A stretch of DNA of 64,000 nucleotides from Rhizomicrobium sp. (GTDB taxonomy: Bacteria; Pseudomonadota; Alphaproteobacteria; Micropepsales; Micropepsaceae): contig JBBCIC010000009.1 in assembly GCA_037200865.1 (NCBI GenBank), forward strand, positions 153,365-217,364, written 5' to 3'. A program made the position numbers and the translations under genes. Shown in pieces: positions 55,092 to 64,000 of this stretch. The stretch's first letter is position 1. The number at the start of each line of letters is the position of its first letter. The notes under the pieces were generated by a model that had not been told where the DNA came from, did no database searches, and worked only from the letters and a program-made list of their open reading frames with translations.

Positions 55092-55809
55092 CTAGATGTG
55101 GAGCTTGGCGTTGCGCTTGCACAAGGCCAGGAGCGCAGTGCGGTTATGGATGTGCAGGCCGGTGTGATTGATCTCGATCCAGTTCTCGCGCCGCCAGCGT
55201 TCGAGCTTGCGGTTCACCGCTTCGCGCGACGCGCCGATATGATGGGCGATCTCCGAACTGATTGTAGATGATCCGGCCGTTGACCGATTCGATGAGCACG
55301 AAGCGCGCCAGCCGCTTGCCCAGCTCCATGGGCGAGGTCCGCTCGACCAGCGCATCGGTCTCGCGCAGCCGTTTCGTCAGGACGCGCACCAGCGCCAGCG
55401 CCGCTTCCGGTTCCGCCAGCAGGGCGTCGTGGATCGGCGCGCGGTCGATCCGCAGCAGCTCGCATTTGCGCGTGGCGTTGGCGTTGGTGACGCGCGGCGC
55501 GCCGTCCAGCGCCCCCATTTCGCCGATCACCGACCCGGCGCCGATGCGCGCCAGCCACACCGCGCGTCCGTCCAGGCCGGGTATGGTGATCTCGATCTCG
55601 CCCGCGAACAGCGCGAAGGCGGCGTCGGAGCGGTCGCCGTGGCCGAACAGCTTCTGGCCCTTTTCGAGGTGGAGGATCGTTCCCGATTCCGCCAGCACCA
55701 GCCGGCGGGCGGGCGAGAGCGCGGCGAACACGCTGTCGCGCGCCAGGGCGGCCGCGATTTTCGCTGGTTTTCCACCATCCGCCTTGGTGAACGTCGAATC
55801 CCCACTCAT
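55092..55809 (-). CDS. Crp/Fnr family transcriptional regulator (one +1 frameshift at ~55256)
   Basis: cNMP-binding domain (IGEMGALDGAPRVTNA) in one frame and HTH (EIAHHIGASREAVNRKL) in another. Removing one A at 55256-57 gives a 238-aa protein. Confidence 0.88.
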
Positions 55810-55873
55810 CGCGTTGAAATTAACAATCGCGCATCGCGGTGCAAGGGACCGGATCGCCGCGTCGCAGGTCGAA

Positions 55874-55920
55874 ATACCCATATTGGGTATATGTAGACGC
55901 TTCCCGAGAGGAAGGTCTAC
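55874..55920. promoter_or_regulatory. Two adjacent inverted repeats in the divergent promoter region
   Basis: ATACCCA-TAT-TGGGTAT (55874-55890) and GTAGAC.CTTCC-N5-GGAAG-GTCTAC (55893-55920). Confidence 0.45.
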
Positions 55921-56039
55921 CGTTCGGCTACCATCGATTTTTCGAGTGTGGCGGTTTTGCGCTGTGATCGACTTGTCTTGACGGTTCGGGCGGGCCGGCC
56001 CAAATGTTGCGCGTCTTATCCATCGGGGGAGTTCCGCTT

Positions 56040-57320
56040 ATGAACAGTTCCGGATTCAGCAGGGGCAAGCTGCTCCTTGGCGCCGCCGCTCTTGCGGTCG
56101 TCGCCGGCGGCGTCCTCATCGGAAGCCAGTACTATCCGGCCAAGCCGGGCCACACGTCCGGCACCATCGTGCCGATGGAACGCTATCATGAAGGTCAGGT
56201 CCAGCAGGGTGACGTCGTCACCGGCGACACCCAGATCCCGAACATGATGCAGACCGACTCGTTCCAGGATCTGACCAAGAACACCCAGGCCGCGTCGCAA
56301 GCCGCCTCGCAGGCCGCCAGCCAGGCCGCCAGCCAGGCTGCTTCGCAAGCCGCGGCGCTCGCCGCGTCGCAGGCCGCAAGCCAGTCGGCAAGCCACGCCG
56401 CCAGCCAGGCCGCGTCGCTCGCCGCGTCGCAGGCCGCACTCACCGCCGCCTCGCACGCTGCCTCGCAAGCCGCCTCGGCCGCTTCGCAGGCGGCGAGCGG
56501 CGCCAGCGCCGCCAATCAGGCCGCGCTGAATGCAGCATCGCATGCGGCATCGCAGGCCGCGGCTCTGGCCGCCAGCGCGGCGTCCTCGCAGGCCGCGGCT
56601 TTGGCGGCTTCCCAGGCGGCGTCTCAGGCGGCGGCTCGCGCGGCGTCTCAGGCGGCGGCGCTCGCCGCCTCCCAGGCGGCGTCGCAGGCTGCTTCCCACG
56701 CCGCTTCGCAAGCTGCGGCGCTCGCCGCCTCGCAGGCTGCCTCGCACGCCTCATCTCAGGCCGCCTCGCAGGCGGCGTCGCTCGCCGCTTCGCAGGCTGC
56801 GTCGCATGCAGCTTCCCAGGCCGCCTCTCAGGCCGCGTCGCAAGCCGCGGCGCTTGCCGCCTCCCAGGCCGCTTCGCAGGCTGCGTCTCAAGCGGCCTCG
56901 CAGGCCGCCAGCCAGGCCGCGGCGGCCCAGGCCGCCTTGAATGCTGCGTCGCAGGCGGCGTCAGCAGCGGCCTCTTCGCAGGCCGCATCGGCCTCGGCGG
57001 CGTCCTTCGCGGCGTCGCAGGCGGCCTTGACCGCCGCTTCGCAGGCGGCGTCGCAGGCCGCTTCGCAGGCTGCTTCCCACGCCGCGTCGCAAGCCGCCGC
57101 TCTCGCGGCGTCCCAGGCGGCGAGCCAGGCTGCTTCGCAGGCGGCTTCTCAGGCCGCTTCCCAGGCCGCGTCGCAGGCCGCCGCGCTCGCGGCGTCCCAG
57201 GCGGCGAGCCAAGCGGCTTCGCAGGCTGCCTCGCAAGCTGCATCCCAGGCCGCGTCGCAGGCTGCTTCCCAAGCCGCGAGCGCCGCTGCCGCGTCCCAGG
57301 CGGCTTCGCAGCAACACTAA
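56040..57320 (+). CDS. 426-aa N-terminally anchored protein with ~340-aa (AASQ)n low-complexity repeat
   Basis: GGGGGAG SD before ATG at 56040; hydrophobic segment at residues 11-28; ~55-aa unique spacer; then AASQ/AAAL/AASH tetrads to the C-terminus. Confidence 0.9.
   Translation: MNSSGFSRGKLLLGAAALAVVAGGVLIGSQYYPAKPGHTSGTIVPMERYHEGQVQQGDVVTGDTQIPNMMQTDSFQDLTKNTQAASQAASQAASQAASQAASQAAALAASQAASQSASHAASQAASLAASQAALTAASHAASQAASAASQAASGASAANQAALNAASHAASQAAALAASAASSQAAALAASQAASQAAARAASQAAALAASQAASQAASHAASQAAALAASQAASHASSQAASQAASLAASQAASHAASQAASQAASQAAALAASQAASQAASQAASQAASQAAAAQAALNAASQAASAAASSQAASASAASFAASQAALTAASQAASQAASQAASHAASQAAALAASQAASQAASQAASQAASQAASQAAALAASQAASQAASQAASQAASQAASQAASQAASAAAASQAASQQH
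56289..57311 (+). repeat. Degenerate 12-nt tandem repeat (GCN GCN TCN CAR) encoding AASQ
   Basis: Visible 12-nt periodicity with heavy third-position variation. Confidence 0.95.
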
Positions 57321-57336
57321 GACAAGAACGATCCAC

Positions 57337-57375
57337 AACAACCACCGTCCCCTGGACGGTGGTTGTTTCTTTTTG
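57337..57375 (+). terminator. Intrinsic terminator after the repeat gene
   Basis: Perfect 14-bp stem AACAACCACCGTCC-CCT-GGACGGTGGTTGTT followed by TCTTTTT. Confidence 0.85.
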
Positions 57376-57418
57376 TGTCTAGATGCCAATCTGAGTCGTA
57401 GGGCATCGGGGGTCGATC

Positions 57419-60376
57419 GTGGATTTCACAAGGCTGCGCCGTGTGGCGCTTTGCCTGGGCATATTGGTGTTCGCGCGCGGACAGGCGCTATCGCCGTCGG
57501 TGGGGCTCAGCCGGATCGAGACCAAGGATCTGGAGCTCCTCTACTACGATCCCATCCAGACCTATCTGACGCCCTATGCGGCGCGCTCCTACGAGAACTC
57601 GTTCGCCTTCCAGCGCCGGATGTTCGACTGGACGCCGTTCGACCGTCCCGTCGTCCTCCCTGCGCGACCTGTCGGACAACGGCCGCGCCACGGTGCGCGC
57701 CGCCCCCAGCAATGCGCTCACCCTCGACGTGGCGCCGATCTACATCCCGTTCGAGACCTTCAGCCCGGGCGAGCGCTTCTTCACCCTGATGAACCACGAG
57801 CTCGTCCACATCGCGACGATGGACGTCGCCGACGACTCGGACAACTGGTGGCGCAAGGTGTTCCACGGCAAGCCGCTGCCGATCGTCGACCACCCCGAAT
57901 CGATCCTCTACAACTACCTCGCCGCGCCGCGCACCACGGTGCCGCGCTGGTATCTCGAAGGCAGCGCCGTGTTCATGGAGACCTGGATGGCCGGCGGCCT
58001 CGGCCGCGCCCAGGGCGCCTATGACGAGATGGTGTTCCGCGCCAAGGTCCGCGACAACGCCGAATTCTACACCCCGCTGGGGCTGGAGGCGGAAGGCAAC
58101 TCGATCGACTTCCAGGTCGGCGCCAACGACTACCTCTACGGCACACGGTTCGATTCCTATCTCGCCCTGACCTACGGACCGCAAAAGGTCATCGACTGGC
58201 TCAAGCGCCAGCAAGGCAGCGAGCCCTATTACGCCAGCGACTTCGAGCGGGTGTTCGGCAAGCCGCTGGACGACGCCTGGGCCGACTGGATCAAGTGGGA
58301 GCACGACTTCCAGGCCAAGAACCTCAAGGCCGTGCAGCAATATCCGGTGACGCCGACCAAGCCGCTCACCGACCACGCCCTGGGCTCGGTGTCGCGTACC
58401 TATTACGACGCCAAGACCGACAGCCTGATCGCCGGCTTCCGCGCCCCCGGCGTGATCGCGAATATCGGCATGATCTCGCTGAAGGACGGCAGCATCCGCA
58501 AGCTGACCAACCTGAAAGGCCCGGCGCTCTACCGCGTCACCCTCGCTCGCCTATGACGAGACGGAAAACAAGGTCTACTACACCACCGACAACAACGACT
58601 ACCGCGACCTGATGGAGATCGACCTCGCCGGCGGCGTGACGAAGATGCTGATTCACGACGGCCGCGCCGGCGATATCGCGCTCAATCCGGTGGATCACTC
58701 GCTGTGGGGGGTGCGGCCGCTCAACGGTCTGGCGTCGCTGGTCCGCGTCGGGCCCGAGCACGACAGTTGGAAGCTGGTCCACGCCTTTCCCTATGGGCGT
58801 ATCCTGTTCGACCTCGACATCTCGCCCCGACGGCCAATACCTCGCCGCCTCGATCGGCGAGATCAACGGCGACCAGCGGATCGGGGTGTTCCGCACCGCC
58901 GAACTCCAGGCCGGCATCGTCAACGAGATCGCCACCTTGAAGCGCGATCCGGCGGTGCCGGAGGGCGGCGTGTTCTCGCCGGACGGCAAGTACCTCTACG
59001 CCACCGCCTATTACACGGGCGTGTCGAACATCTACCGGCTCGAACTGGCGACCGGCAAGATCGAGGCGGTCAGCAACGCGGTCACCGGCTTCTTCCGGCC
59101 GCTGCCGATGACCGACGGCTCGCTGATCGCCTATGAATACACCGGCCAGGGGTTTCTTCCGGTGCGCATCGCGCCCAAGCCGCTCGATGATCTGGGCAAT
59201 GTCAGCTTCCTCGGCACCGAGATCGCGAACAAATATCCCATCGTGAAGAGCTGGGCGGTCGGGCCGCCGTCGAAGATCCCGCTGGAATCGATGATCACCG
59301 GGCAGGGCGCTTATATCCCGCGCGACGAGTTGCGCCTGATGTCGCTCTATCCCACGGTCATGGGCTACAAGGGCCATGCCGCGCTCGGCCTTTACGCCGA
59401 GCTCGAAGATCCGCTCGGCTACAACGAGCTCACCGCAAACGTCTCCTACTCGCCGGCCGGCAACATCACCGCCGGCGAGCAGTTCCACGCCGACGTCGCC
59501 TACCGCACGCTCTACTGGCACGTGCGCTATTGGCACAACAGCGCGAATTTCTACGACCTGTTCGGACCCGTCGACCGCAGCCGCAAGGGCGACGCGCTGC
59601 TCGGCGGTTACAACACGGTGCTGATCTACGATATGCCGCGCCGCCTCGACTTCTCCGCCGACCTCGAACTCTATTCCGGCCTCGACACGCTGCCGGGGGC
59701 GCAAAACGTGGCGACTGCGGCGCCGAGCCTGGGCACGCTGCGCCTGGCGCTCAACTATGACAACATCGACAAGTCGCTGGGCGCGGTGGACTACGAGGAA
59801 GGCTATCACCTGCGCGGCGTGCTGCGTTCCGACTACACGCGCGGGACCTTCTTCCCCAAGGCGCGGCTGGATGCGAGCGCCGGCCTGGCGCTGCCGTGGA
59901 AGCATTCTTCGCTCTGGGGCTATGCCTCGGTGGGGTACGGCACCGGCGACCCGAATGACGGGCTCGACTATTTCTACTTCGGCTCCTTCGGCAACAACTA
60001 TGTCGACGACGGGGAGGTCAAGCGCTACCGCGAGTTCGACAGCTTCCCCGGCTTCGACATCGACGCGATCAGTGCCAAGAGCTTCGTCAAGGCGCTCGGC
60101 GAATGGAATTTCCCGCCCGTGCGCTTCAACGACGTCGGTTCGGCCGGATTCTATTTGAGCTCGGTCCGCCCGGCGCTGTTCGCCGGCGTGCTGTGGGGCG
60201 ACCCGGGCCTTTCCGCGTTGCACACTTACGAGACCGTGGGCTTCCAGCTCGACTGGAACTTCACCGTCGCGGTGCGCCTGCCGATGACGCTGTCGGTCGG
60301 CTATGCCCGGGGGTTCAGCGACAGCAGCATCACCGGCCGCCACGACGAGATCCTGGTGTCGCTCAAGATTCTCTGA
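57419..60376 (+). CDS. ~984-aa outer-membrane protein: HExxH metallopeptidase-like domain + beta-propeller + C-terminal beta-barrel (Omp85-like); three +1 frameshifts
   Basis: ORF pieces 57419-, 57576-, 58612- and 58793- join after removing one C at 57658-60, 58540-42 and 58825-28. Motifs: NHELVH, PRWYLEGSAVFME, PD40-like SPDGQY/FSPDGKY, and amphipathic beta-strands at the C-terminus. Confidence 0.8.
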
Positions 60377-60392: not shown

Positions 60393-61409
60393 ATGGCGAC
60401 GCAATTTCTCATCGAAGCGCCCATCGCCCTGGTGCCGGTTCTCGTCTTCCTCGTGACGCTGCACCTTTTCGATTCCTATCGCCTCACCAGCCTTGCCGAA
60501 ATGGCCGAGACGATGATCACCGGCGCGGTGCTGGCGGCGGCGGCTTATTTCGCCAACGGCTATCTGCTTGGCGCGCTCGGCATCGACTACGCGGTCTACA
60601 GCCATGTCGTCGGGCCGGCGGTCGAGGAAGCGCTCAAGGCCGCGGCGCTGGTCGTGTTCTTCGCGCGCAACCGCATCGGCTTCATGATCGACGCGCTGAT
60701 CATGGGCTTCGCCGTCGGCACGGGGTTCGGGGTCTTCGAGAACCTCTATTATCTCTATGCCTTCCAGGACGCGGGCCTGGGCGACTGGATTATCCGCGGC
60801 TTCGGCACCGCGATCCTGCATGGCGGCGCGACCGCGATCTTCGCGGTGCTGTCGCAATCGCTGATCGAGAAGCGCGGCGCCCTGCGGCCCTGGCACTTCG
60901 TTCCCGGCCTCGCCATCGCGATCGCCGCGCATGTCGCCTACAACCTGCTCCAGGACACGCCCTTGATCGCGGCGCTGGCGATCCTCGTCGGCCTGCCGCC
61001 GCTGTTCTATCTCGTCTTCACCAAGAGCGAGCACGCCGTGCACCAATGGCTGGTGCACGATTATGCCTCGCACGAGCAGCTCCTGGCCGACATCGAATCG
61101 GGGCGTTTCCTGCACACCGAGGCCGGGCGGTTCATCCTCAGCCTGACCCGCAAGTTCAGCAAGGCGGTGGTCGAGGACATCTTCGCCTATCTGAAGCTCC
61201 ACACCCAACTCGTACTGCTGGCCGAGAAGCTCAGCCTGGCGCGCGAAAAGGGCGAATCGCTGGCGCCGGTCCCCGGCGTCCGCGACGACCTCAAGCGGCT
61301 GAAGGAGCTCGAACGGCGCATCGGCCGCTCGGCGATGATGGCGCTATGGCCGCATCTGCATTTCAGTCGGCGCGAGTTGTGGGAGCTCCACGAGATGCAC
61401 GGCCTCTGA
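60393..61409 (+). CDS. prsW: PrsW-family glutamic-type intramembrane protease
   Basis: GPAVEEALK, GFGVFEN, LHGGAT and AHVAYN motifs with multiple TMs; GAGG SD before ATG at 60393. Confidence 0.85.
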   Translation: MATQFLIEAPIALVPVLVFLVTLHLFDSYRLTSLAEMAETMITGAVLAAAAYFANGYLLGALGIDYAVYSHVVGPAVEEALKAAALVVFFARNRIGFMIDALIMGFAVGTGFGVFENLYYLYAFQDAGLGDWIIRGFGTAILHGGATAIFAVLSQSLIEKRGALRPWHFVPGLAIAIAAHVAYNLLQDTPLIAALAILVGLPPLFYLVFTKSEHAVHQWLVHDYASHEQLLADIESGRFLHTEAGRFILSLTRKFSKAVVEDIFAYLKLHTQLVLLAEKLSLAREKGESLAPVPGVRDDLKRLKELERRIGRSAMMALWPHLHFSRRELWELHEMHGL

Positions 61410-61428
61410 CGGCGGCAGGACTGCCGCG

Positions 61429-64000
61429 TCAGAAGCCCATGCGGAACTGCGCCCCGACCGACACCGACAGCGGCGTCTCGACGAAGCCCGGCGGGTTGAG
61501 GTCGACCAAGCCGAAGGCGGCGACCTCGCCGCGGCCTTCGAGGACGGTGAGGCCGTACAGCGCCTCCATCCGGTATTCGCGCTTGCCGGCGATGTTCCAG
61601 GCCTGCGTCACCAGGCCCAGCGCGCCGGTGTCGCGGTCGATCACCTCGATCGAGGTGTAGTTCAGCGCGCCGCTTTCGACGTGCAGCGGCTGGGTGACCG
61701 ACAGGCGCAGGGAGTCGAGTTCGGCGAACAGGCCCGTCTTGGCCGCGACGAATTCGAAGGCGGTCGATTGCAGGCCGTTCTCGTCGAGCGTCAGGCCGGA
61801 CGGCACCGATCGCGCCATGGTCGTGTGGGCAAGCGTCGCCGAAACCGGACAGCGTCCAGCCGCCGGACAACGCCGCCGTCAGGCCCAGCGTGGTGCCTTC
61901 GGTGCGCGCGCCGTTGGCGAGCGCGAAGCTGCCGCTGCCCTGCGCGCCGAGCAGGCCGTCGGCCTCGTTCAGCAGCGTGTAGGACGCGTTGAGCGCCAGA
62001 CCCTTGGCAAGCGTGTAGTCGATGCCGGCGACCGATGCCGAGGCCCTTGCGGGGGCGAGCGGAACCGTCTGCAAGGGCCCGAAGGTCGGATCGTAGTACA
62101 GATGGTCGTCCGTCTTCTGGCTGAAACCCAGGCTGACATGGAGGTCGCGGGTGACCGCGATGCCGCCGCTGGCATAAGCGCCGCCCGAGGCGAAGCCGAG
62201 CACCGGATTGACGCCGCCGGTCTCGGGATCGAAGTCGGTGCGCAGGCCAAAGCCGCTCGTCGCCATCAGGGCATAGGCGCCGCTGCCTTCGCCCAGGCGC
62301 ATGTCGATGCCGGCCTCGCGGTTGGAGGCGACGAACTCGGCATGGAACGGCCCTTCGCCGCCGCGCGTCTCGTCGGGCGAAGACGGCGTCGCCACCATCT
62401 CCAGCGCCCAGGCGCCGTCGCGCAGCGGCATGGACTGCGAGCCGAAGTTCAGCGTGTTCACGCCGTGCGCCCAGTCGATCAGGCGCTGATAGAGATAAGT
62501 CTGGAATGGATTGGTGTTGCCGTTCACGCGCTGGTCCTTGCCGGCGAGCAGCGAGCTCAGCGGGATCGTGAAGTCGCGATAGGTCGAGCCGATCGACTCG
62601 AAGGCCACGACATAGGCGCTGCGCTGCTGCCACAGATTGAGCTGGCCGGGATTGAGGACGGCGGATTTGAGGCTCGACGGCGACCAGTTCGCGAACAGCG
62701 GCGTGGTGGTCTGTTTGCCGTTATAGGTGTTGGGCTGATAGACGGTGAGCTTGTTGAAATCGAGCGGCGACTGCGACGCCTCGATGTCGAGCTCGCCCCA
62801 ACCATAGACGGGGTCGACGCCCGGCGCGCCCAGATCCTTCGCCGAGCGGAAGATGATCTGCGCCGTTTCCTCGGCATGTTGCTGCAGCCACGGCCAGCGG
62901 TCCTGCAGCAGGGCGACCGCGCCCGTCACCAGCGGCGCCGCGAACGAGGTGCCGCTCATCCGCGTGACGCCGCCATGGTTGTCGGAGACCAGGATGAGCT
63001 CGCCCGGCGCCACGACGAAGCGGTATTTGAGCTTGTTCTGCTCCAGGCAAAGGCCGAGCAGCGTGAAGCAGGATTCGCCCGGGGTGTTGGAGAACGGCGA
63101 GATCACGCCGGTCGGGCCGACCGAGCCGACCACGATCAGGTTGTTGGGCGCTTCGAGGCCGAGCAGCCACGGCAACGTTCTGCGTCTGCTTGACGCCTTC
63201 ATTGCCGGCTGCCTTGACGATGACGAGGCTGTCCTTGCGGCTGCTGAGCAGCGGACCGCTCAGGATATTGACCCATTCGTTCGACACCGTCGTGCCCGGC
63301 ACGCCGAGCGAGGCGTTCACGACATGGGCGCCCGAATCGTACAGCTTGGCGATGCCGGAGGCGACGTCGTTCCAGCTCGCAGTGCCGCTGGCGTCGAACG
63401 GATTGTAGAGATGGACCTCGGCGTTGGGGTCGACGCCCATCACGCCCTGGCCGTCATGCTCGGCCGCGATCAGGCTGGCGACGGCGGCGCCGTGGTCGTT
63501 CACGTAGTATTTGTAGCCGCCGACGAATTTGAGCCTGTCGACATTGGCGCCGTCCGCGCTCACCGACGAGTCGAGGATGCCGACGATGGCGCGGCCCTCG
63601 CCGCCCTGGATCTGCGTCAGCGACGGCGACCAGTGCACCGCCGGCATCCACCAGTCGACATGGTCGACGCCGGTGAAGTTCATCAGCCCGTCATACCAGT
63701 TCAGGAAGAAGAACGAGCGCGTCGCCGCATCGGTGCCGGCGAGCGAGGCCGGATCGTTGGGGTCGATGCCGTATTTCGCCAGCATGTCGTTGGCGAAGCC
63801 GTCGGCGAAGCTCTTATGGGTGTATTTGCCGACCGCCGGGCTCCAGAACGCCGCGGCCTTGCCGAGGAAGCTGCGGATCTGCGATTGCAGGCTGGAATAG
63901 TCGGTGGCGTTCGCGGCCTGGAGTTTCGTCCAGGTGTCGTTGATCGCGCCCCATTGCGGGCCGGCGGTCTCCCAATAGGGTCCGACCGTCCCCCAGAAGG
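61429..64000 (-). CDS. S8 subtilisin-like serine protease with C-terminal beta-barrel-like domain; 5' end outside the window; two +1 frameshifts
   Basis: Triad VGILDSS / NDHGAAVAS / SGTSFAAP, oxyanion AAGN, ending VGAQFRMGF. Frames join after removing one A at 63174-75 and one at 61842-44. Confidence 0.88.

Follow-up and report, generated by a model that had tools for sequence, protein, structure and literature searches.

What does an alphaproteobacterium do with a protein built almost wholly from alanine, serine and glutamine, and what do the genes around it tell us about its role? The gene in question lies on the forward strand at 56040-57320 of a 64,000-nucleotide stretch of Rhizomicrobium DNA, which we call the window, and encodes 426 residues. 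A preliminary description of this DNA had divided the product into an 83-residue head and a repetitive tail with a single Arg and no Asp, Glu, Lys, Pro or Cys, and the residue count agrees: the 343-residue tail (residues 84-426, 56289-57317) holds 182 A, 75 S, 56 Q, 14 L, 8 H, 3 N, 2 T and one each of G, R and F, arranged in units among which are 50 AASQ, 9 AAAL and 6 AASH. The four-residue period is just as plain, with an autocorrelation of 0.70 at lag 4 against 0.10-0.30 at lags 1-3 and a Fourier peak at 4.0. The repeat DNA has a period of 12 that matches at just 66%, and its Ala and Ser codons are mixed. A Shine-Dalgarno-like GGGGGAG (56025-56031, forward strand) precedes the ATG at 56040, and a G-rich tract occupies the same place in orthologues. 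Across the 4.2-Mb genome a scan finds no second (AAS[QH])n array. Tetrads repeated five times occur in just one other place, a (GGGH)5 in one reading frame near 1413724 of G000:C9, outside the window.

The (AASQ)n open reading frame is real. A 1902-nt contig of run X1 spans 55758-57659 with zero differences from the window, a match that tests the assembly and not independent occurrence, as X1 is possibly the window's own sample. Cover in the RNA runs X3 and X4 is low and even across genes of both strands; within the repeat it comes to one 170-nt piece at depth 2, too thin to indicate expression either way. Neither an Rfam family nor a tRNA turned up when the window was scanned. Against same-sample contigs the window has seven one-base indels in 8.5 kb (54130, 54172, 55256, 57658, 58540, 58825 and 61842). 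Since those contigs are without the extra bases at 55256, 57658, 58540, 58825 and 61842, the neighbouring genes described below are intact, and we reject pseudogenisation of the barrel, CRP and S8 genes by frameshift. Apparent pseudogenes elsewhere in this assembly should be distrusted.

The head begins with a basic N-terminus followed by one predicted transmembrane segment (residues 11-28, 56070-56123, forward strand), as the preliminary description had it. The 19-residue hydropathy mean from residue 11 is 2.25 against a tail maximum of 1.18, and the pattern is kept in the family alignment. That description also saw no clear AxA cleavage site. AxA is indeed absent, but the rule for signal-peptidase sites is the wider -3/-1 rule, which T39-S40-G41|T42, 13 residues past the hydrophobic stretch, does fit; the -3 position across the family is T in 22, A in 17, V in 14, S in 8, L in 7 and I in 3 (n=73). 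The G41|T42 site would thus also be compatible with signal peptidase I. It falls within a conserved motif, P..G41-T42-(I/V)xPxxRY..QV...DV..GD......MQTD.FQ (56136-56267, forward strand), in which G41, T42, R48, Y49, Q53, V54, D58, V59, G62 and Q71 are invariant in 29 of 29 aligned sequences, so the expectation of a conserved head was right. AlphaFold2 (AF2) predicts the head alone to be unfolded (pLDDT 42-54). Being conserved yet unfolded alone is what one would expect of a recognition signal, and we regard the head as a candidate cleavage and docking signal.

How widely is this head spread? A search of 301 genomes of the window's own family gave 61 matches, 59 of them clear and two weak ones, with no barrel match beside them, that were set aside. 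The class sample gave 2 of 301 genomes. The phylum sample of 401 added one weak match (E 7.5e-4), rejected since it covers the transmembrane segment only. With so few in the class sample and no accepted extra match in the phylum sample, the head family is patchy. An HMMER search with the head returned 1074 representatives (50% clustering, E<=0.001); together with the genome searches this overturned a word-index protein search with the head that had given 0 matches. The closest named relatives are in Rhizomicrobium (Micropepsaceae), then Caulobacteraceae, Sphingomicrobium, Hyphomonadaceae and Halieaceae. Neither head nor tail has a credible Pfam family, with none at E<=0.01, and an NCBIfam match to ser_rich_anae_1 (24 bits against a cut-off of 650) was dismissed as compositional only. 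The Atlas gave the window protein no feature match and structure matches of TM<=0.35 by query.

Two genes follow downstream. The first (57419-60376, forward strand) encodes an outer-membrane protein of about 985 residues that combines an HExxH peptidase (HELVH at 57795-57809), a TolB-like beta-propeller and a 16-strand Omp85-like barrel, as judged from an orthologue model; the window's copy carries one-base assembly errors at 57658, 58540 and 58825, where the same-sample contigs are without the extra bases. The second (60393-61409, forward strand) encodes a PrsW-family intramembrane metalloprotease. An intrinsic-terminator-like hairpin of 14 bp with a U tract lies between the repeat and barrel genes (57337-57377, forward strand). 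Among 49 genome loci the next gene is the barrel gene in all 41 that reach that far (eight end too early) and the gene after it encodes PrsW in all 36 that do. Related loci among these do not count as independent cases, and there is overlap between L002-L030 and L031-L059. Where they extend far enough, the best 80 of 546 metagenome loci have the barrel gene next in 29 of 29 and then PrsW in 15 of 15. The same association appears in the 301 whole genomes of the window's family, which hold 59 clear heads and 65 barrels, with both in 58. The barrel is thus present in 58 of 59 genomes with the head, and the head in 58 of 65 genomes with the barrel. Of 65 distinct loci, 45 have a terminator-like element after the repeat gene, compared with 13 of 325 random windows; such an element would let the substrate greatly outnumber its two enzymes. 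The conserved neighbourhood contains no gene for a modifying enzyme, and the plasmid collection gave no barrel match.

The orthologue barrel-protein model is of high quality (pLDDT 88, pTM 0.88). Its propeller superposes on TolB with Z 22.5 and rmsd 2.8 over 240, and its 16 long strands (residues 625-970) superpose on D. radiodurans BamA with Z 19.1 and rmsd 4.3 over 295 aligned, so the model has the 16-strand, C-terminal, BamA-like barrel by which the Omp85 superfamily is defined. By sequence, the Omp85 Pfam profile gives no match at E<=0.1 to an intact orthologue, and a PDB search with the barrel protein returns a TolB-like chain only. By fold, there are propellers only among the Foldseek matches listed. 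The peptidase domain is Peptidase_MA_2-like by Atlas features, and all 51 sequences compared (51 of 51) keep its H113, E114, H117 and E167. The product of 60393-61409 scores 62.7 bits against PF13367 (cut-off 23.5) and has the EExxK, FxxxE and His motifs of PrsW, with E80, E81, K84, F114/E118 and H146 invariant in 48 of 48. In this PrsW subfamily the last 110 or so residues lie past the Pfam domain and are conserved as a C-terminal extension (W222, Y269, L276, G290 and G314 in L033 numbering).

The preliminary description had counted three neighbouring proteases. The barrel-fused HExxH peptidase and PrsW are conserved partners, but the third, an S8 protease, is not: it has 0 real matches in 49 loci, the sole match being a 72-nt overlap with the end of PrsW. 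This large subtilase, with a beta-rich C-terminal part, lies on the reverse strand at 61187-64000, convergent with PrsW, and is broken by the assembly error at 61842 and apparently by a second shift near 63200.

Is the tail itself a conserved product? Its identity to four close orthologues is 81-86%, and where a four-fold residue is the same, the third codon position has changed in 65-72% of cases. Judged by this comparison, the tail is under selection as protein. Low complexity inflates such identities, so we also shuffled the units. Real alignments of unit order with the four close orthologues score 1098-1195 against shuffled maxima of 811-905, and 7-13 of 15 hydrophobic landmarks match against shuffled means of 1.5-3.4. 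Four more distant orthologues also beat all 100 shuffles in score, but only 2-5 of their 15 landmarks match, which is not above the shuffles. The period of 4.0 persists in a divergent clade without exact repeats, and tail length stays at 340-380 residues in 11 close relatives.

A helical tail, as proposed earlier, is upheld as a prediction. AF2 with 19 sequences gives four long helices of 74-104 residues with block pLDDT 51-88 and breaks near residues 152-157, 236-240 and 315-321. In orthologues, inserts that contain Pro or are rich in Gly fall at predicted breaks one and three. The orthologue L003:1501-2883 has an insert of about 20 residues containing Pro, Gly and Trp at the third break, its AASQ tail being otherwise collinear. 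The model is a monomer with pTM 0.27, and the packing of the helices is predicted at no confidence. A right-handed coiled coil, one form of the right-handed bundle that had been suggested, has a core periodicity of 11/3 or 15/4 and is an oligomer; the tail has a period of 4.0, and a fibre or a right-handed bundle may or may not form.

Conservation of this kind does not extend to the whole family. The comparison of repeat motifs among homologues proposed in the preliminary description has a divided outcome: the head is fixed, but the tails are unconserved and their motif changes by lineage. Of 91 distinct tails, 49 have a dominant period of 10, 17 of 4, 14 of 8 and 11 of 3, 5, 6, 9, 12 or 15; those that are complete measure 105-494 residues; and relatives have Gly-rich units such as SGGA, AGN and NAS as well as 10-mers. 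Tails with periods of 3-15 and Gly-rich tails cannot form the same helix, so there is no single product fold for the family. On a tree of 51 barrel proteins (midpoint root, quick search, tail labels assigned by hand) the short-period tails of small residues fall into two separate supported clades, one of 14 Rhizomicrobium-type rows (SH-aLRT 100) and one of 8 rows of the fused type discussed below (SH-aLRT 99). Each adjoins relatives with 10-mers, so the tetrad tail was probably derived twice.

The window locus appears to be wired to a regulator of the CRP family. The gene upstream (55092-55881, reverse strand), divergent from the repeat gene, encodes a cNMP-binding domain (Pfam cNMP_binding, 1e-14), a GE...R motif and the recognition helix SREAVNR. 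Its start codon is uncertain, and it contains the one-base assembly error at 55256, the extra base being absent in the X1 and X4 contigs. Such a gene lies head to head with the repeat gene in 21 of 49 genome loci. Between the two in the window (55963-56007, forward strand) a TGTGA box abuts a -35-like TTGACG (55978-55983), with a weak -10-like hexamer near 56001-56007, and alignments point to a CRP-dependent promoter. A class II CRP promoter has TGTGA-N6-TCACA overlapping the -35, and in E. coli CRP the residues R-E-x-x-x-R, which the window's recognition helix retains, read TGTGA. Here the TGTGA half-site and its spacing are conserved and the second half is degenerate. The box is found at the -35 in 21 of 21 CRP-adjacent loci, 3 of 28 others and 52 of 9800 random windows; 16 of the 21 were in the alignments that supplied the pattern, and the remaining five match but are close kin. 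A stricter form of it occurs once in the genome, at the repeat gene. We infer that a cNMP-responsive CRP-family protein activates this promoter.

What the window lacks becomes clear only by comparison with distant homologues, many of which have an anti-sigma-like domain of about 70 residues and a variable linker ahead of the head. The window protein has 10 residues ahead of its transmembrane segment, so this N-terminal cytoplasmic domain is absent from it. By its sequence it is the short, anti-sigma-less form of an anti-sigma-like family, which the preliminary description had overlooked. We studied the fused form in 80 metagenome loci, which are the best 80 of 546 ranked against a fused protein and hence selected for that form. 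The anti-sigma-like domain is in the same reading frame in 78 of these best 80, the other two giving no match, and it matches NF052375 at E 1.7e-4 to 5.6e-9, below the curated cut-off. An ECF sigma gene is directly upstream in 76 of the best 80, and three of the four misses have less than 500 nt upstream; the best NCBIfam matches of these sigmas include SigW, below cut-off. Fused homologues thus have the layout of class I anti-sigmas of the RsiW/RskA type, namely an anti-sigma-like domain, one transmembrane segment and an ECF sigma upstream, and an inhibitory role is predicted for them. The ECF loci are accompanied by SpoIIE-like (56), RsbW-like (64) and STAS-like (70) genes.

These fused genes are predicted to make the short form as well. 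An in-frame ATG stands at the window-protein start position in all of the best 80, and 78 of them have an internal Shine-Dalgarno score of at least 5; up to two ATGs were considered per locus and the better one kept. Such a score occurs at 11% of 1716 codons in the linkers and at 4.5% of 444 ATGs further downstream. The linker carries a promoter-like cCAACyTT-N-YGTA (AAC, 16 nt, YGTA; a spacing we take to be SigW-like) in 69 of 78 of these loci, or 41 of 45 clusters at 70% identity, against codon shuffles of at most 1, with the reservation that the pattern was read from these linkers themselves. A matrix trained on the linkers finds the same site before the ECF gene in 67 of 67 cases among the best 80 and between the separate anti-sigma and repeat genes of three of three Halieaceae loci; in the long loci the site is nowhere else. 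The same promoter at a sigma gene and its target is how autoregulation by an ECF sigma typically looks. The internal ECF-type promoter with its Shine-Dalgarno and ATG leads us to predict two products of one gene, a long inhibitor and a short isoform, and the ancestral arrangement was probably one in which the ECF sigma transcribed both itself and the short form. The ECF-proximal promoter (L081, L083, L109 and others) usually ends YGTAATTGTG very near the ECF start, and the sigma mRNA may be leaderless. Short-linker fusions (L105 and L120, also L101 and L104) keep the internal Shine-Dalgarno and ATG and have lost the internal promoter while retaining the ECF-proximal one. The separate anti-sigmas of Halieaceae have a similar P-x(6-8)-VGS motif after the transmembrane segment in three of three related genomes, which hhalign places on the PP..GT head motif with a probability of only 6.8.

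In the window this sigma arm is missing. The gene directly upstream of the repeat gene is the divergent CRP gene and not an ECF gene. In the window genome, which is 85% complete, the closest match to the ECF is 28% identical, tblastn finds no fused-type anti-sigma domain, and no AAC-N16-YGTA promoter scores at least 14; nor is there such a site in the well-assembled relatives G352 (100% complete) and G471. More generally, none of the 46 non-Halieaceae genome loci has an ECF, anti-sigma or partner-switch (SpoIIE-, RsbW- or STAS-like) gene. Since the triad of repeat protein, barrel and PrsW persists in these 46 loci, it must have a job apart from signalling. The window lineage appears to have lost the sigma feedback and kept the cargo with its machinery. 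As the three sigma-less genes act by themselves, the possible functions of the wider system narrow to exporting or processing this repeat protein.

Since the triad survives the loss of the signalling arm, we take the repeat protein to be a cargo and the two proteases to be the machinery that would handle it. The CRP-family protein would activate the promoter and the terminator would keep the substrate in excess of the enzymes. The repeat protein would be inserted through Sec by its transmembrane segment and anchored N-in in the inner membrane until PrsW frees it near G41-T42. The outer-membrane barrel protein would then capture the freed conserved head, trim the protein and export the largely intact tail as a helical polymer of the surface or matrix. 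At sigma-bearing loci the same cut, in an anti-sigma with the same juxtamembrane motif, would release sigma. For the whole of this model, an abundant anchored substrate cut by PrsW, captured by the barrel and exported largely intact, we would put the chances at about even. Its larger version we hold only tentatively and think rather doubtful: a new two-membrane export route in which a PrsW-released subunit with a short sorting signal passes through its own peptidase-propeller-Omp85 channel to form an alpha-helical surface polymer, its sequence swapped between lineages, and in which one gene at sigma loci makes both the subunit and an upstream-start anti-sigma bearing that subunit, so that the machine reports its activity to transcription.

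An intact peptidase fused to the barrel would suit degradation or chopping as well as trimming. The preliminary description had already raised a polyprotein. In the version considered here, the barrel-fused peptidase would chop the freed tail into short lineage-specific peptides (AASQ, AASN, AAKS/AADS, DRAG and so on), which would exit by way of the barrel and serve for signalling or for marking kin. An intact HExxH peptidase gated by a propeller fits this, as does a tail motif that shifts by lineage while the head stays fixed. Peptidase position 71, about 40 residues before HExxH, even seems to follow the tail, being F in 27 of 27 long-period loci and L in 14 of 14 and 6 of 8 of the two short-period clades; this is a weak lead, for it concerns one column with two origins, a single base suffices for the change, and the crossed controls yielded 2 and 1 one-way columns. 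However, no cleavage motif is common to all tails, the conserved neighbourhood has no modifying enzymes, and a bag of peptides needs none of the unit order, helix breaks and length that orthologues conserve. It is this conservation of order, breaks and period that favours a long, intact product, and we consider the polyprotein unlikely. Degradation is the fate of the tail if the short form is instead a periplasmic decoy or timer, a sacrificial substrate that competes with the anti-sigma for PrsW and the outer-membrane peptidase. The ECF-type promoter of fused loci, which would drive a form that lacks just the inhibitor domain, would be a natural negative-feedback design for this. Yet short form, barrel and PrsW are retained in dozens of genomes without an adjacent ECF or anti-sigma gene, the window genome and the two relatives noted above included, and the decoy seems to us quite improbable.

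Two further readings can be weighed. An uncut tether or ruler, anchored in the inner membrane and spanning the periplasm to bind the barrel, could report or set the spacing of the membranes, and the single transmembrane segment, the long predicted helices and the narrow range of lengths in the 11 close relatives would all suit it. But complete tails range from 105 to 494 residues across the family, the conserved signal adjoins the inner membrane and not the far end, and two intact proteases accompany the gene; we find this very unlikely. Least credible of all, and by our estimate hardly to be entertained, is a stand-alone silk-like or ice-binding secreted protein independent of its neighbours. 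Only the composition favours it, the AASQ tail sharing with tubuliform spidroins and type I antifreeze proteins an Ala/Ser/Gln-rich, helix-forming make-up. The resemblance, which the preliminary description drew by analogy only, does not amount to membership on either side. Spidroins flank their repeats with conserved N- and C-terminal domains, whereas Pfam finds no spidroin domain here (E<=0.01) and the tail runs to the stop without a terminal domain; type I antifreeze proteins place Thr every 11 residues on an Ala-rich helix, whereas this tail has a period of 4.0, 2 Thr in 343 and 53% Ala. The family is also unlike both in being bacterial, membrane-anchored and variable in its tails, and its strict linkage to barrel and PrsW speaks against independence.

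Known systems resemble the module in part. Pseudomonas Fap and E. coli curli have a repeat subunit and a dedicated outer-membrane channel in one operon, and Fap also a peptidase; the export form can also be likened to two-partner secretion. The module would work like Fap and curli in bringing together a repeat subunit, a dedicated outer-membrane protein and a peptidase, the export role being predicted, but there is no sequence match, the subunit is membrane-anchored and predicted to be helical, the presumed channel is Omp85-like and the peptidases are metallo-peptidases. The signalling form resembles B. subtilis SigW/RsiW/PrsW/RasP, in which PrsW is given as the site-1 protease of RsiW (PMC10202637): the PrsW motifs are intact, and relatives have the ECF sigma, the one-transmembrane anti-sigma-like protein and the AAC-N16-YGTA promoter. 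Unlike that system, these are two-membrane cells with a dedicated outer-membrane peptidase-barrel, the outside part of the relatives' anti-sigma is a repeat protein predicted to be made also alone from the internal promoter and start, and the window is without sigma and inhibitor domain altogether. By analogy, then, the signalling form would work like RsiW/PrsW and the export form like Fap or two-partner secretion, but the module belongs to neither.

The proteases have precedents of their own. A TolB-like propeller before an Omp85-like barrel, with no POTRA in our model, is the arrangement of WD40-Omp85 proteins (PMC4104836). The barrel protein differs from these and from Metallo-Omp85 in its extra N-terminal HExxH peptidase, whose fold is not that of PF00149, the 'Metallo' domain; the main text of Heinz and Lithgow 2014 (PMC4104836) does not contain the word 'peptidase', lists WD40-Omp85 proteins without peptidase or substrate, and, as far as we found, links them to neither a substrate gene nor PrsW. 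An orphan Omp85 architecture thereby gains a candidate substrate. PrsW has been proposed by Zhang et al. 2012 (PMC3482391) as a release or export peptidase for polymorphic toxins, cutting and freeing cargo across the membrane much as we propose; there it is fused in cis to the toxin domain, mainly in Gram-positives, while here it would act in trans on a cargo without an enzyme domain and with an outer-membrane partner. Among the entries covered of the supplement of an ECF classification (PMC7826278), PrsW is named only for Firmicute groups, and from these no ECF group can be assigned to the relatives' sigma. Proteobacterial PrsW would gain a candidate role beyond anti-sigma cleavage.

We found no description of this module in the literature searched, which lies outside subscription journals. 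The window contributes a triad that lacks sigma and is wired to CRP, a tetrad tail whose unit order is under selection, and two probable independent origins of that tail. If true, an ECF promoter and ribosome site inside a coding sequence, yielding inhibitor and cargo, would be an unusual feedback design, and materials research would take an interest in an Ala-rich helical polymer that is secreted and can be swapped genetically. The carriers in culture, Sphingomonas hankyongi SE220 with the sigma-less form and Haliea sp. E17 with the sigma form, make the module directly testable. Sphingomicrobium-type loci (L060, L063, L064, L067, L069, L072 and L075) have no CRP gene upstream of the repeat gene; in that place they have a conserved protein of about 1000 residues and a small secreted-looking open reading frame on the opposite strand.
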